From contig CAYNGK010000003.1 of NCBI GenBank assembly GCA_964396935.1, forward strand, positions 1 through 30,971: 30,971 bases of DNA, read 5' to 3'. This DNA is from an uncultured Methanosarcinales archaeon (lineage in GTDB: Archaea; Nanobdellota; Nanobdellia; Woesearchaeales; UBA525). Position numbers and translations under genes: made by a program. The notes below the pieces were generated by a model, which saw only the letters and a program-made list of their open reading frames with translations, made no database searches and was not told where the DNA came from. This document shows, in pieces, positions 13,877 through 18,913 of the stretch; position 1 is the first letter of the stretch; each line of letters starts with the position of its first letter.

Positions 13877-15679
13877 ATGGTGGACCACCGCAAGATCCTG
13901 CTCGCGTTTGGCATGTTCTTTCTCCTCTTGGCGTTCTTCGCGCACATGAATGCCACGGGATCGCGCGCAGACGAGCTCACGCTGCTGACAGTCGCGGACA
14001 CCAGCACCGGCGCGATGGGCGGCACCGCCAGCCTGCGCCTCGAGGTCAGGCCCGGCACCGGCGCGATCTTCATCGACAGCTTTCCCCTGACGCGCATCGA
14101 TACGCAGGCGAGCGCGCGCTACGCGCAGCAGGTGGCGTGCGATCATCTCGATATCGATTGCAGCCAGTACGATTTCTACTACACCATCCGTGCGAACACC
14201 GCCGTTGTCGGCGGTCCGAGCGCAGGTGGCGCGATCGCGGTCCTCACCGCCTCGGTGCTCTCGGGCCTGCCGATCGACCATTCGATCGCGATGACCGGCA
14301 CGATCAACAGCGGCGGCGTGATCGGGCCGGTCGCTGGCGTGCGCGCGAAGATCGCTGGCGCACGTCAAGCAGGCATCAAGACCGTGCTCATCCCGGTGCT
14401 CGCCGGTCCGGAGAATGGCACGATGGCACCCGACGGCAACGCAACGCCGCCGGCCAACGGTTCCGTTGAGGAACCGTTCGGGCCGCTGCCTCGTGGCCGC
14501 GTGCCGGAGCTCTCCGGATCGGGTGTGGAGGTGTTCGCGGTCAGCACGCTCGATGAGGCGCTCGCCGCATTCACCGGACGAGCACCTTCGCCGCCGCCGG
14601 CTCCCCTGACACCGCCGCCGCAGTACACCGAGCGCATGCGCGCGATCGGCGAAGGATTGTGCGCGCGCAATGCGCAGCTGCGTGCGCAAGCGGACCAGCG
14701 CGGGCTCGCATATGGGGATCCGAACAACTACACGCAACGCATCGCGGCGGTTCCCGTCGAGGAAGGATACGCGCGCGCATCGCTGTGCTTCAGCCAGGAT
14801 ATCGAGATCGCCACGATCATCGCGCAGGCCATGACCCCGGCGCAGCAGGACGCGCTCGCGCGTGAGGTGCGTTCGCGCATCGAGGATGCGCGTGGCACCG
14901 TTGGGAATGTGACGTTGCGTACGGTCGGTGATCTCGAGGTCGCGGCGATCGTACGCGAACGCATCGCGCAGGCGCAATCGCTGCTCGACGGGCGCAACAG
15001 GACCGATTTGAACGCGTCGGCTGCGGATATCGCGTACGCGGATGAGCGTGTGCGCAGCGCGCAGAGCTGGACTGCCCTGCTTGGCATGTCGGGTGCTCCA
15101 TTGCGTATGGACGAGGAGCGGCTGCGCCGCACGTGCCTTGCGAAGATCGCGGAAGCCGATGAGCGCATCAGCTACGTGCGTGTCTACGCGCCTGGTGCGG
15201 TCGCCTCGGCAGAGGAGAGCCTGCAGCTCGCGTACGCGAGCGACAGCGATCCGGTCCTCTGCATCCTGCATGCTGCGACTGCTGTCGCTGACGCGAACCT
15301 CATCAGCGGCGCTATCGCTGTTGACGCATCACGTGTCGATGATCTCCTCGCCGAGAAGCTCGCTGCCGGCGAACGCGTGCTTGCTGAGCGCCAGGCGCAT
15401 GGCGCGTTCCCGATCCTCGGCTACAGCTACTGGCAGTACGCGTCCCGTCTTGGCGCTGACGCGCCGTACAGCGCGCTCACCTTCGCTGAGCAATCGCTCG
15501 AGCTCGCGACGCTCGATATGTATTTCCCTCCTGAACGCGCGTCCTGGCGCGTGCCGCCGGAAGCGGCGAACGGCGTCGTGTTCTTCAGCTACGGCGCCGC
15601 GTTCATGGTCGGTATCTCCTTGCTGCTGTGGCCGACGGCCGTGACGGCATCGCCGAAGCGACGTCGGCGACGGCGTTGA
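13877..15679 (+). CDS. Membrane-anchored Lon-type (S16) serine protease without an AAA domain (COG1750-like), 600 aa
   Basis: N-terminal signal/TM segment, Ser-Lys dyad GPSAG...TGTINSGG...RAKI, and a C-terminal TM followed by an Arg-rich tail. Confidence 0.88.
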   Translation: MVDHRKILLAFGMFFLLLAFFAHMNATGSRADELTLLTVADTSTGAMGGTASLRLEVRPGTGAIFIDSFPLTRIDTQASARYAQQVACDHLDIDCSQYDFYYTIRANTAVVGGPSAGGAIAVLTASVLSGLPIDHSIAMTGTINSGGVIGPVAGVRAKIAGARQAGIKTVLIPVLAGPENGTMAPDGNATPPANGSVEEPFGPLPRGRVPELSGSGVEVFAVSTLDEALAAFTGRAPSPPPAPLTPPPQYTERMRAIGEGLCARNAQLRAQADQRGLAYGDPNNYTQRIAAVPVEEGYARASLCFSQDIEIATIIAQAMTPAQQDALAREVRSRIEDARGTVGNVTLRTVGDLEVAAIVRERIAQAQSLLDGRNRTDLNASAADIAYADERVRSAQSWTALLGMSGAPLRMDEERLRRTCLAKIAEADERISYVRVYAPGAVASAEESLQLAYASDSDPVLCILHAATAVADANLISGAIAVDASRVDDLLAEKLAAGERVLAERQAHGAFPILGYSYWQYASRLGADAPYSALTFAEQSLELATLDMYFPPERASWRVPPEAANGVVFFSYGAAFMVGISLLLWPTAVTASPKRRRRRR

Positions 15680-15895: not shown

Positions 15896-16023
15896 TACAA
15901 GTTACAGCGAAATCGTCACCTTCCATTGACGAATACCGTATCTGCGAATCGGTCATCTGCCGTCGGTGATTCTCCCCGCTTGGGCACAATTCCTTTAAGG
16001 TGATGCGGTGCTGCTGGTTCTCC

Positions 16024-17835
16024 ATGCGTCCGTACCGGGTCCTCGCGAATGCGTTGGGAGTTGCGCTCCTCGCAGCTGGCGCGTTCGCCATGCCTAATCC
16101 CATCGTCAGGCCTCCGCGCGCGGATGCGGTGGCGGACGCCCGTCTCGATGATACGCGACCGTTGGACCTCTCCGTCACCCACAAGCTGTTCCTCACACCG
16201 ATCACAGAACGCCTCGACACCGCCGATGAAGTCCGCCTGGAGCGGTACCTCTGGACTGTCGTGCCGACAGGCCGACGGATCATCTTCCCCGATGAGCAGC
16301 TGCGCCCGGTCGGTTCGGTCGAGCTCACGCCGGAGCAATACCGGCGGTGGGATGCGCTCGCCTCCACGCGCGCGCACCAGTACCTCGACACGATCGCCAC
16401 GCAATCGTTTCGTGTGCGGCTCCCCACGTCGATGCGCAACCGGCGCGTGCCCTGGCGCACCGGCTATGCTGACCGGTTCGTCGACGCGCTCGATCGCGCC
16501 GCTCCTTACATCCCGTATTTGGAATCGATGGCGTCGCAGCGTGGCCTGCCGCGCGACACCTGGCTGCTCGCCGTCCAAGAATCGCTCTTTCGACCTACTG
16601 CGGTGAGCAGCGCCTGGTGCGAGGGCCCGTTCCAGCTCTCACGGCCCGCAGCGCGCACCTTCGGACTCGTCGTCCCGCGGCTCGCTCGCGGCGGGAACAC
16701 GACGCAAGTGAATGAGAGCCTGCATCCGCTCCTCGCAGCGCAGGCAGCGTTCGACCTGCTGTACGCGTACGCGTACCACACGGGCGGCTTCCTCACCGGT
16801 GTGAGCGCGTACCACACGGGACCTGGAAACCTTGCGAAGATGCGGATCCTGCAGCTACGCCATCCGCAATGGCGTTCACAGGAGGACGCAGGAGTACCGG
16901 CGATGATCGCCGAACGCTATCTGCACGGCATCGACGCTGCGCTCTTTGACCCCGTCACGGAGATGTCCTCGCTATCGGGCGATGAGACCGAATCGCCAGG
17001 GGACGTGACCCTCGAGAGCACTGTGGCGGCCGATGGCCTCTCCTGGATCGTGAGCGACGGTTGGCGGCATCCGAGCAATACGCGATCGTACAGCGGATAC
17101 CGTCGGGAGAGCTCCCTCTATGTGCCGCGGTTCCTCGCGCTGCGCAACGCTCTGCGCCGGGATGCGCTCTTTCGGACAGAACGGGAACTCGCCGGTATGC
17201 GACGCATTCCCGCAGGGAACGGCACGTGCGGTCCTCGTGGTCCGTACACCACGGACCTGCCGGTGTGCTGGATCTCCGCGCCCGTGTTCCATGATGTGGA
17301 GCGATACGCAAAAAAGGCGCTCGATCTCGATATGGTCGCTATCCGCTACCGCACGCCGCCGCGCGCGGGCAAAGAGCCCCTCACGGGTGAGGACCTCGCA
17401 CAGGCGGTCGGTGACTTGTCGGTGTTCACCGCCTATAACCCGCACATCCCACGCAAGGCCCGTATCCCGGAAGGCACCCGCGTCGCGTTGCCGCCGGGGA
17501 CCGCTGCCTCGTTCATCACCGCGCGTCCCTTGCGTGATCTCCTCGATACCGCACCCGTGACTACCTATCGCGATGGAGTGATGAGCGCATCATCGGCGCC
17601 TACAGCACCGCTTGCGGAGGATCGGGAATACGCGCGCCTCGCGCTCCTGCGCAGCGACGGCCGATACGACGAGGTCGATCCGGAGGCGGTCTGCGCGCTC
17701 GCGGACCGCATGGAAGCGATCGACGACGGATCGCTCACGCGCTCGTTGCAGCGACGCGTGTCGCGCCTGGACTGCGCGCTCACAAGCCATCGCTCCTCCC
17801 GATCGCTCCTGCGCCTCGCCGATGAGCATCGGTGA
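16024..17835 (+). CDS. Secreted MltD-like lytic transglycosylase (SLT domain), 603 aa
   Basis: Signal peptide MRPYRVLANALGVALLAAGAFA. SLT motifs LAVQES (Glu186), GPFQL...AARTFGL, VSAYHTGPG and LYVPRFLA, then a LysM-like segment AYNPHI...IPEGTRVALP. TTTAAG box at ~15993-15998. Confidence 0.82.
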   Translation: MRPYRVLANALGVALLAAGAFAMPNPIVRPPRADAVADARLDDTRPLDLSVTHKLFLTPITERLDTADEVRLERYLWTVVPTGRRIIFPDEQLRPVGSVELTPEQYRRWDALASTRAHQYLDTIATQSFRVRLPTSMRNRRVPWRTGYADRFVDALDRAAPYIPYLESMASQRGLPRDTWLLAVQESLFRPTAVSSAWCEGPFQLSRPAARTFGLVVPRLARGGNTTQVNESLHPLLAAQAAFDLLYAYAYHTGGFLTGVSAYHTGPGNLAKMRILQLRHPQWRSQEDAGVPAMIAERYLHGIDAALFDPVTEMSSLSGDETESPGDVTLESTVAADGLSWIVSDGWRHPSNTRSYSGYRRESSLYVPRFLALRNALRRDALFRTERELAGMRRIPAGNGTCGPRGPYTTDLPVCWISAPVFHDVERYAKKALDLDMVAIRYRTPPRAGKEPLTGEDLAQAVGDLSVFTAYNPHIPRKARIPEGTRVALPPGTAASFITARPLRDLLDTAPVTTYRDGVMSASSAPTAPLAEDREYARLALLRSDGRYDEVDPEAVCALADRMEAIDDGSLTRSLQRRVSRLDCALTSHRSSRSLLRLADEHR

Positions 17836-17890: not shown

Positions 17891-18913
17891 ATGGCACGAC
17901 ACCAGCCCTCCGGTGAGGGACCGAGAGCGCCTCTCCTGCTCGTCGCGATCATCCTCGTCCTCCTCGCGCTCGGAGCGCTGTTCGCGGCGATCCGTGTCTT
18001 TCTCGTACCGTCATTGACGGTCGTGCGCGAACAGGGGTCGGTCGATGCCGTGTTCTGCCGCACCGCCGACTGCGAGCAGGCGCTGCTCGAGTGGATCGGG
18101 AACGCGTCCGACGTGCGGTGCGCGTTCTATGAGCTCGACCTGAACCGCACAGCGATGGCGCTCAACAGCATCAGCGCAAGCGTGCTCGTCTTCGACGAGA
18201 ACATCGAACGGGCAAGGGCTGCAGGCCTCATCGCGACCGGTGTGCCATCTGCAGGGCTGATGCATGACAAGTTCTGCGTGCTCGATGACTGGGGGGTGGT
18301 GACCGGTTCGATGAACCCGACCGTGACGGCGCAGACGCGCAATGACGAGCACTTCGTGCTCGTGCGCTCGCGCGCGCTCAACCGTGCGTACGCGCGAGAA
18401 TGGGGTGTGCTCGAGGATCGTGCGTTCGGCGCCGAGGGGAAGAAGCCGCGCGTGAACGCGCCACTTGTCGAGCTCTCCGGCGTGCCGGTGGATGTCTGTT
18501 TCGCGCCCGCCGAAGGGTGCGAGACGGATCTCGTCGCCGCGCTCGACCGCGCGAACGCATCCATCCGCTTTCTGGCGTTCTCGTTCACCTCCGATGCGGT
18601 CGGTGATGCGCTCGTGCGCGCGTATGACCGCGGCGTGGACGTGTCGGGCGTGGTGGAGCGTCGGCAGGTCGACAAGTGGTCGGAGTACGATGCGCTGCTT
18701 CTCGTCGGGATACCGGTGCGAAAAGACGGGAACGCCGGCACGATGCACCACAAGGTGTTCATCATCGATAACGAGACCGTGGTGACGGGTTCCTTCAATC
18801 CGACCGCGAACGCGAACACGCGCAACGACGAGAATATGCTGATCATCCAAGACGCGATGCTGGCGCGGGAGTATCTCGACGAGTACGATCGCGTCAGCGC
18901 TGCAGCGTCGTGA
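17891..18913 (+). CDS. Membrane-anchored phospholipase D superfamily protein (two HKD motifs, Nuc-like), 340 aa
   Basis: N-terminal TM helix, HDKFCVLD...TGSMN, and HHKVFIID...TGSFN...NDEN. A TTAAA box lies about 22 nt upstream. Confidence 0.9.
   Translation: MARHQPSGEGPRAPLLLVAIILVLLALGALFAAIRVFLVPSLTVVREQGSVDAVFCRTADCEQALLEWIGNASDVRCAFYELDLNRTAMALNSISASVLVFDENIERARAAGLIATGVPSAGLMHDKFCVLDDWGVVTGSMNPTVTAQTRNDEHFVLVRSRALNRAYAREWGVLEDRAFGAEGKKPRVNAPLVELSGVPVDVCFAPAEGCETDLVAALDRANASIRFLAFSFTSDAVGDALVRAYDRGVDVSGVVERRQVDKWSEYDALLLVGIPVRKDGNAGTMHHKVFIIDNETVVTGSFNPTANANTRNDENMLIIQDAMLAREYLDEYDRVSAAAS

Follow-up and report, generated by a model that had tools for sequence, protein, structure and literature searches.

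The locus described here raises the question of why an archaeon with no detected genes for murein synthesis should encode an apparently murein-cutting enzyme, and against what that enzyme would be directed. The gene lies on a 30,971-nucleotide contig (CAYNGK010000003.1 of assembly GCA_964396935.1), and "the window" hereafter denotes this whole stretch, which is contig C3 of a metagenome-assembled genome (MAG; G000) placed by GTDB in the order Woesearchaeales. The open reading frame (ORF) in question extends on the + strand from ATG 16024 to the stop codon ending at 17835 and encodes a 603-residue protein (P0001). We refer to it as the SLT gene, after the catalytic domain of its product. A preliminary description, made from the sequence alone, had presented the protein as a secreted MltD-like lytic transglycosylase of an archaeon and had suggested that it acts on neighbouring bacteria. 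The analysis reported here supports that P0001 is, by predicted fold, motifs and signal, a Sec-exported MltD-type lytic transglycosylase of family 1, subfamily 1D-like. The SLT gene itself is, for practical purposes, archaeal and resident and not the product of a chimeric contig.

Catalytic motifs and their conservation

The Pfam SLT profile (PF01464) matched residues 181-272 with 27.1 bits, against a cut-off of 21.3. The main SLT motifs, which had been listed in the preliminary description together with an intact catalytic Glu, are all present: motif I, LAVQES (181-187, with E186-S187); motif II, GPFQL (201-205); motif III, AYHTG (262-266); and motif IV, YVPRFL (366-371). The four motifs are conserved in the close homologues. 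We have aligned 12 family members (alignment A4), which are 26-56% identical to P0001, and found E186, S195, G201, Q204, E231, H234, P235, G254, G266, S363, Y366 and H474 to be invariant, with Y263 and N472 nearly so. At least 90% of 88 relatives share E186, S195, Q204, Y263, G266 and N472.

The phmmer alignment to 8RHE, a structure of Pseudomonas aeruginosa MltD (PaMltD), placed E186 on the Glu of the VIES motif, which is the catalytic Glu144 by the numbering of the construct. This conservation supported the prediction that the protein retains a working active site.

The predicted structure is closest to MltD

An AlphaFold model built from the 88-row alignment reached a predicted local distance difference test score (pLDDT) of 88.4 and a predicted template modelling score of 0.88, being weak only at an insertion (~290-330) and at a loop (~400-415). 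A four-sequence alignment had given a pLDDT of 41.6. When the model was compared with the PDB using Foldseek, the top six matches were all P. aeruginosa MltD, with E ~2e-5. The VIA-align superposition on PaMltD gave a Z of 19.7 and a root-mean-square deviation of 3.1 Å, with 249 of 276 residues aligned and model residues 51-505 falling on residues 84-339 of the chain. The Z values obtained on the predicted model with other solved enzymes were 13.9 for MltF, 11.2 for MltE and 10.9 for Slt70.

According to the structural study of MltD (PMC11327851), a helical region at the N-terminus (76-130) lengthens the active-site cleft and precedes the SLT core (131-230). It is followed by LysM1 (279-325), a module that sequence tools had failed to foresee and that is packed against the catalytic domain. 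The study names the N-terminal extension, together with the attached LysM1, as hallmarks of lytic transglycosylase subfamily 1D. Our alignment starts at model residue 51, equivalent to MltD 84 and within the helical region, and ends at chain residue 339, past LysM1. Hence, both hallmarks of the subfamily would be covered by the range aligned on the predicted model. P0001 is nevertheless not an MltD ortholog, and it is MltD-like in its predicted working.

The domain assignment made earlier from the letters alone therefore stands on a profile match above its cut-off and on a model that is closest to MltD. As to the broader claim of a secreted MltD-like lytic transglycosylase in an archaeon, it is borne out by the best structural match (PaMltD), by the intact catalytic Glu and by the archaeal context presented below.

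The SLT gene is resident in the archaeal genome

The source MAG comprises 1.44 Mb in 118 contigs and was estimated to be 91% complete with 1% contamination. Another contig of the same MAG carries archaeal small- and large-subunit rRNA genes, and the GC content is even across the contigs (0.624 +/- 0.016). The GC content at third codon positions (GC3) of the SLT gene is 0.77 and its relative synonymous codon usage (RSCU) correlates with that of the other window genes with r = 0.92. Its neighbours include the archaeal core genes for GatD and a Bud32-type kinase. Both the genome-like codon usage and the setting between core archaeal genes agree with what had been described before.

A TATA-like box, CTTTAAG, can be read from the sequence at 15993-15999 (+), 24 nt before ATG 16024. 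The same heptamer stands at the same 24-nt spacing in the ortholog of the sister species (G002), although the flanks differ, which upholds the archaeal TATA box of the preliminary description. We have rejected GTG 16000 as a start codon because it directly abuts this box, which lies 24 nt ahead of the ATG, and ATG 16024 was taken instead. With this start, the SLT transcript would be leaderless or near-leaderless.

The gene order Bud32-type kinase, Lon_C protease, SLT, PLD and HAD recurs in two congeneric species, G002 and G003, and also on independent metagenome contigs carrying the more distant orthologs P0006, P0007, P0008, P0009, P0012 and P0015. Wastewater, activated sludge and similar samples in which bacteria dominate contained the organism at low depth (2-6x). 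Four runs of wastewater or activated sludge, belonging to three studies, yielded Logan contigs that matched the locus with 100% identity and zero mismatches; these contigs bridged the SLT-PLD junction in four of four runs and, when pooled between runs, tiled the Lon-SLT junction.

These observations bear on the possibility of an artefact, in which faulty assembly or binning would have brought a bacterial gene into an archaeal MAG. Such an event could be imagined from the fragmentation of the MAG into 118 contigs, from SLT genes being typical of bacteria and from the low depth of the organism in the runs. Against it stand the recurrence of the Bud32-Lon-SLT-PLD-HAD order in the assemblies of two other species and on at least five independent metagenome contigs, the agreement of GC, GC3 and RSCU between the SLT gene and its neighbours, the conserved archaeal-type TATA box, the junctions covered at 100% identity in four runs of three studies and the contamination estimate of 1%. 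We consider the artefact essentially refuted and hardly credible. The archaeal rRNA genes, the genome-like codon usage, the conserved TATA-like box, the recurring synteny and the junction-covering contigs together indicate that the gene is native to the archaeon, and a chimeric contig, which the preliminary description had named as a finding that would overturn its reading, is for practical purposes ruled out by the synteny and by the contigs from four runs.

One low-depth contig of run X4 joins position 13912 to position 17963, skipping 4050 nt that hold the Lon and SLT genes. It carries 39 unrelated letters at the join, its shorter side is only 21 letters long, and its source may be a different organism and not a deletion variant. 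With regard to taxonomy, relatives of the GatD neighbour bear the title "Candidatus Woesearchaeota archaeon". The sister-species contig CAZIKW010000004.1 was deposited as "uncultured Methanosarcinales archaeon", whereas other GatD relatives are titled Woesearchaeota, and the Methanosarcinales title of that deposit is probably a pipeline label, that is, a taxonomic mislabel of the MAG.

Distribution and origin of the family

Close full-length homologues of P0001 numbered three among 5.8 billion clustered proteins, and an exhaustive phmmer search returned 14 representatives at E < 1e-10. When genome contigs were searched for related loci with P0001 as the query, none came up. SLT domains as such are common, being present in 95 of 151 sampled genomes of the same GTDB order. 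Of 401 genomes of the order, three matched the full-length family profile (G000, G002 and G003), and these were again the only ones to match in a sample of 401 from the phylum. The orthologs of G000 and G003 share 26% identity, against 47-58% for the neighbouring genes, and those of G000 and G002 share 48-54%, which is not exceptional. Judged from these values, the orthologs diverge fast on some branches.

We have built a quick IQ-TREE phylogeny of the SLT region (195 columns), which is unrooted and in which most rows carry no taxon label. The 14 "archaeal-locus" sequences fell inside one supported group of 44 rows (Shimodaira-Hasegawa-like approximate likelihood ratio test, SH-aLRT, 95) that also holds a tight 30-member clade including P0014. 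Elsewhere in the tree lay most of the remaining SLT domains of Woesearchaeal origin, among them the two further copies of G000. The contig of P0014 (L039) presents a bacterial context, with genes for PBP1A, an extracytoplasmic function (ECF) sigma factor, a response regulator and a rhomboid protein. In the Atlas, all of the nearest clusters come from bacteria, most commonly Rhodothermota and Acidobacteriota. The distribution and phylogeny in archaea, which had been left for checking, are thus those of a narrow family: three of 401 order genomes, and 14 archaeal-locus sequences in a supported 44-row group.

Some 30 representatives (P0014-P0040), of 550-660 residues, share the same architecture and go mostly unseen by Pfam SLT. 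The P0014 clade looks like an unannotated bacterial MltD-like family.

The free tree nested the P0014 clade within the archaeal-locus sequences, with weak support (SH-aLRT 81-88). A tree in which the 14 archaeal-locus sequences were forced to be monophyletic was more likely than the free tree and was not rejected (approximately unbiased test, p-AU 0.93). On both counts, a transfer from archaea to bacteria was not retained. The data are most simply read as a single ancient transfer, in which a Woesearchaeal clade received a complete MltD-like gene from bacteria; the gene would then have ameliorated, diverged and been lost repeatedly. The bacteria-to-archaea direction of this transfer is suggested by the ubiquity of the fold in bacteria and is unproven by the tree. 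What is new here is a narrow, patchy family-1D-like subfamily, barely seen by Pfam, that occupies a fixed chromosomal locus in a narrow clade.

Other wall-related genes of the genome

Mur_ligase_M, Transpeptidase and FtsW/RodA (SEDS) were not found in the 91%-complete G000 genome, while the bacterial control genomes did match these profiles. Given this negative result, murein or pseudomurein of the archaeon itself is an unlikely substrate. Pseudomurein as a target was set aside also on account of its differing glycan chemistry and of the amidase and M23 partners described next, which point to murein. AnmK, which serves the use of anhydro-muropeptides, was not found in the genome either, and this speaks weakly against simple muropeptide catabolism.

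We have found three further wall-related genes in G000. Contig C1 encodes, at 31066-34885 (-) (L045:5067-8885:-), a 1272-residue exported protein that combines three murein-cutting domains in one chain: after an N-terminal hydrophobic segment come Amidase_2 (230-363), Peptidase_M23 (448-552) and SLT (648-783). The Amidase_2 family cuts the MurNAc-L-Ala bond of murein (MurNAc, N-acetylmuramic acid) and the M23 family cuts the peptide cross-links. The gene adjoins one for an archaeal Hef-type helicase-nuclease, and the three ORFs upstream of it (355, 330 and 579 residues) had no Pfam match. A third SLT gene, on contig C55 (L001:901-1929:+), encodes a 342-residue protein that is anchored in the membrane at its N-terminus. 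Its SLT domain is canonical (64 bits) and groups with other Woesearchaeal SLT domains, apart from that of P0001. Lastly, a 268-residue frame on contig C56 (2955-3761, +; L047) is hydrophobic towards its N-terminus and contains a single LysM domain recognized by Pfam (25.7 bits), and its product is possibly a murein- or chitin-binding surface protein.

Domain organization of P0001

The signal peptide comprises residues 1-22 (16024-16089, +), with MRPYR followed by a hydrophobic core and by A-F-A before M23, and without a lipobox Cys, the first Cys of the protein not coming before residue 199. This is the only strongly hydrophobic stretch of the protein (mean Kyte-Doolittle 2.0 over residues 6-20), which bears out the signal peptide of the preliminary description, and comparable N-termini are found in all homologues. 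Cleavage would fall before M23. We have considered a prepilin-type (class III) signal and rejected it: R-G stands ahead of the core in P0003 and P0004 and not here (R5-V6), and A-x-A follows the core. A Sec type I signal peptide is more likely. The five conserved Cys of the protein were counted in favour of export.

The N-terminal module (residues 23-145; 16090-16458, +) is predicted as a small beta unit plus helices, with pLDDT values mostly of 86-96, and is the counterpart of the MltD N-terminal helical extension. It is followed by the SLT/GH23 catalytic domain (residues ~146-382; 16459-17169, +), in which the codon of Glu186 lies at 16579-16581 (+). Within this domain, a variable acidic insertion (residues ~280-335; 16861-17028, +) precedes motif IV. 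Its length varies in the family alignment and it is one of the two low-confidence regions of the model; the large insertion before the last motif had been correctly read from the sequence. A long beta-hairpin insertion (residues 383-430; 17170-17313, +) carries Cys402 and Cys415. In the AlphaFold model, its strands are residues 383-396 and 416-428, and confidence is low at the tip (400-415). Both Cys are invariant in four close homologues, and the hairpin is missing from several family members.

Residues ~435-500 (17326-17523, +) form a cryptic LysM1-like module with a predicted beta-alpha-alpha-beta order (strand 435-439, helices 455-462 and 465-471, strand 486-489; pLDDT 93-98) and with conserved N472-P-H474 and G492. 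The chain ends in a predicted four-helix domain (residues 510-603 plus the stop codon; 17551-17835, +), with helices at 531-544, 553-565, 571-587 and 590-601 (pLDDT ~95) and with Cys557 and Cys584. Pfam, including LysM, gave no match at E 10 in residues 25-145, 430-510 and 505-603, nor in the C-terminal parts of two homologues. Of the two C-terminal features noted in the preliminary description, the helical end of no known family is confirmed as four helices (531-601) without a Pfam match. The LysM-like segment holds as far as the predicted structure goes (435-489, aligned with MltD through LysM1) and finds no counterpart in the Pfam LysM search at E 10.

Genes flanking the SLT gene

Upstream, at 13877-15679 (+), lies a gene for a 600-residue protein with a Lon_C (S16) protease domain, hydrophobic N- and C-termini and no ATPase match. 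Downstream, at 17891-18913 (+), a gene encodes a PLD-like protein with two HKD motifs and an N-terminal membrane helix. Both flanking proteins look surface-exposed. The PLD gene has its own box, CTTAAAC, 22 nt before ATG 17891, and is probably a separate transcription unit that starts 6 nt downstream of the listed GTG. We have entertained an SLT-PLD operon or "hydrolase island", and this idea was weakened by the presence of a TATA-like box of its own 22-24 nt before each ATG. A functional unit of SLT and PLD was likewise weakened, as the backbone of Lon, 150-residue ORF and PLD persists in congeners without the SLT gene. For this reason, the SLT-PLD linkage reflects a conserved backbone and not a demonstrated functional unit.

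The order at the G003 locus is Lon, SLT, a 143-residue ORF and PLD. An ORF of ~150 residues, without a signal peptide, stands just upstream of PLD in relatives with or without the SLT gene (L022:4836-5267, -; L042:2754-3209, -; L037:4836-5288, +; L024:3486-3953, +; L055:2015-2491, +). These copies are 34-48% identical to each other, and the two that were scanned had no Pfam match. The G002 locus lacks the ORF, and G000 lacks it throughout its assembly.

Proposed function and alternative explanations

We consider that the enzyme probably acts on bacterial murein. As the archaeon is without murein of its own, the substrate would be the walls of the surrounding bacteria. In the mechanism that we propose, the protein would be exported through Sec, and the LysM1-like module packed on the catalytic domain would form, with the N-terminal helical extension, an extended groove holding a glycan strand of peptidoglycan. 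Glu186 would then cleave the beta-1,4 bond between MurNAc and N-acetylglucosamine (GlcNAc) non-hydrolytically, leaving a 1,6-anhydro-MurNAc end. By joint action with the 1272-residue Amidase_2, M23 and SLT protein, the membrane-anchored SLT protein and the LysM protein, bacterial sacculi could be opened or degraded. The activity, the substrate and the purpose of the enzyme (host contact or penetration, killing, scavenging) are what we infer from these data; attachment, predation, competition and scavenging are alternative purposes that are indistinguishable on present evidence. The earlier suggestion of action on neighbouring bacteria has gained circumstantial support from the lack of detected murein-synthesis genes, the companion muralytic genes and the bacteria-rich habitat, so that the target and the lifestyle are plausible and unproven.

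A more specific version of this proposal is that the organism is a true cross-domain episymbiont or predator of activated-sludge bacteria and the enzyme a fast-evolving, host-matched wall opener. The 26% identity between congeners, where neighbouring genes show 47-58%, and the presence or absence of the gene within one genus led us to formulate it, and we regard it as possible but rather doubtful. Under these circumstances, the enzyme, the Amidase_2-M23-SLT giant, the adjacent surface Lon-type protease and the PLD protein would together breach the bacterial envelope.

Several observations weigh against a muralytic enzyme directed at bacteria. The Pfam SLT score is marginal, with 10 of 34 family members being recognized (E 0.01), and the NCBIfam MltD equivalog NF008050 gave 29.6 bits, far below its cut-off of 508. 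The gene is dispensable, as congeners G004 and G007 keep the Lon, 150-residue ORF and PLD backbone without it, and it is rare (only three of the 401 sampled order genomes, and the same three of the 401 phylum genomes). About 200 residues are inserted relative to MltD, including 280-335 and the hairpin 383-430, and the C-terminal four-helix domain (531-601), without a Pfam match, has no counterpart in MltD. Furthermore, G000 is 91% complete, so its murein genes are "not found" rather than proven absent. Finally, g-type lysozymes, which also have the GH23 fold, match the model at Z ~10, and GH23 further includes chitinases; the fold by itself leaves the substrate undecided.

These last points lead to the possibility that the fold has been re-used on a glycan other than murein. 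Candidates are chitin or chito-oligomers, the exopolysaccharide of the sludge, and a surface glycan that contains GlcNAc and belongs either to the archaeon or to an archaeal host. The protein would then be a hydrolase or lyase with a role in nutrition or in remodelling of the archaeon's own surface. Besides the lysozyme matches and the chitinases of GH23, the large insertions and the extra C-terminal domain foreign to MltD, as well as the failure to find AnmK, would fit such a role. The PaMltD groove, too, binds chitotetraose (PMC11327851). Nonetheless, a murein lytic transglycosylase, LysM1 included, leads the structural matches by a clear margin, and the catalytic Glu-Ser and motifs II-IV of family-1 lytic transglycosylases are kept. 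The same genome encodes Amidase_2 and M23 domains, which belong to murein-acting families, and among the closest relatives from outside the archaeal group is a bacterial protein encoded beside PBP1A. Re-use on another glycan is in our judgement unlikely. We assign a similarly low likelihood to the protein being mainly a wall-binding adhesin, whose groove and LysM1-like module would hold the archaeon on a sacculus while catalysis is weak or irrelevant. Attachment is among the roles proposed for DPANN SLT proteins (Castelle 2021; PMC8204110), and P0001 has a LysM-like module and is a multi-domain protein, though without a membrane or S-layer anchor. A soluble secreted protein without an anchor could, however, not tether a cell by itself, and the invariance of the Glu and of all motifs across orthologs of 26-35% identity argues for selection on catalysis. 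Action on bacterial murein is thus the explanation that we prefer.

Significance

To our knowledge, no DPANN archaeon has been shown to live on a bacterium, and such a life has been suggested repeatedly since 2013 from genes of exactly this kind. If the episymbiont or predator proposal were true, the organism would provide the first case of a DPANN archaeon paired with a bacterium for which the molecular tool is defined. Beyond the points made in this section, the locus is one further instance of a published pattern, which leaves the picture unchanged, fits the published idea and brings no surprise. The protein is among the more tractable candidates for testing murein cutting by Woesearchaeal SLT proteins, because it is small (603 residues) and single-chain, has a confident in silico fold and offers an obvious catalytic knock-out (E186Q). 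Two points of more general use are that Pfam-based surveys undercount such genes, as seen from the 10 of 34 family members recognized, and that amidase and M23 domains can occur in a single genome beside three or more independent SLT lineages.

Comparison with known systems

Attack on, or attachment to, bacteria by such archaea is an already published idea (PMC8204110, PMC9723730, PMC12352652). Castelle 2021 (PMC8204110), which cites Rinke 2013 and Castelle 2015 for it, described giant extracellular SLT proteins of DPANN archaea (fam00969), of up to ~3000 residues and widespread in Woese- and Pacearchaeota. Predatory Woesearchaeota were proposed from GH23 genes (Vigneron 2022; PMC9723730), a 2024 study of DPANN archaea of oxygen-deficient zones makes the same point, and Strock 2025 (PLoS Biol; PMC12352652), "Archaea produce peptidoglycan hydrolases that kill bacteria", reports that such hydrolases are particularly prominent in Nanoarchaeota.

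P0001 resembles the DPANN giants (PMC8204110) in its Woesearchaeota-type DPANN source, in the family of its catalytic domain, in export and in the role proposed against bacterial walls. With 603 residues it is not a giant, and it is set apart from fam00969 by the description of that family. The giants are widespread, whereas the family of the window protein was found in only three of 401 order genomes and in the same three of 401 phylum genomes. The giant-type SLT of G000 is a different gene, that of the 1272-residue protein on contig C1, and the SLT domain of the window protein lies in a separate 44-row clade, apart from most other Woesearchaeal SLT domains. With the enzymes of Strock 2025 (PMC12352652), it shares the general situation of murein-degrading enzymes in murein-less archaea, read there as anti-bacterial tools. 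In the parts of that paper considered here, lytic transglycosylases are mentioned once, with a citation of Vigneron 2022, and the MltD-like family goes unnamed.

Matches over the whole length came from three uncharacterized AlphaFold DB clusters (A0A2H3PAX2, A0A2T2TAW9 and A0A2T2UEB2; ~500-680 residues), covering query residues 6-601 and 66-601 with template modelling scores of 0.56-0.66, and these proteins share the C-terminal helical domain with the window protein. The nearest non-archaeal relatives by sequence are proteins of ~500-680 residues, including a 619-residue bacterial Atlas cluster, in which Rhodothermota are commonest, and P0014. Their identity to P0001 is 17% over the full length, reaching 30-35% in the SLT core only, and they have no PLD or Lon neighbourhood. 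P0014, the sole one of these relatives whose context was seen, belongs to a murein-making bacterium, where it may be a housekeeping wall remodeller.

The closest characterized system is MltD of P. aeruginosa and Escherichia coli (PDB 8RHE, 8RHF and 8RHI). The likeness lies in the N-terminal helical extension, predicted here, in an SLT core with the Glu-Ser catalytic motif, E186 falling on Glu144, and in a LysM1 module missed by sequence tools, here on the predicted model. On the other hand, sequence identity is only ~18%. MltD has a lipobox Cys, whereas the woesearchaeal protein has a plain signal peptide; MltD carries further LysM repeats (LysM2-4), whereas Pfam LysM found none in residues 430-603 at E 10 here. 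The woesearchaeal protein has two Cys pairs, one in the hairpin 383-430 and the second in the C-terminal domain. Finally, the archaeon that encodes it is without murein on which a remodelling enzyme could work.

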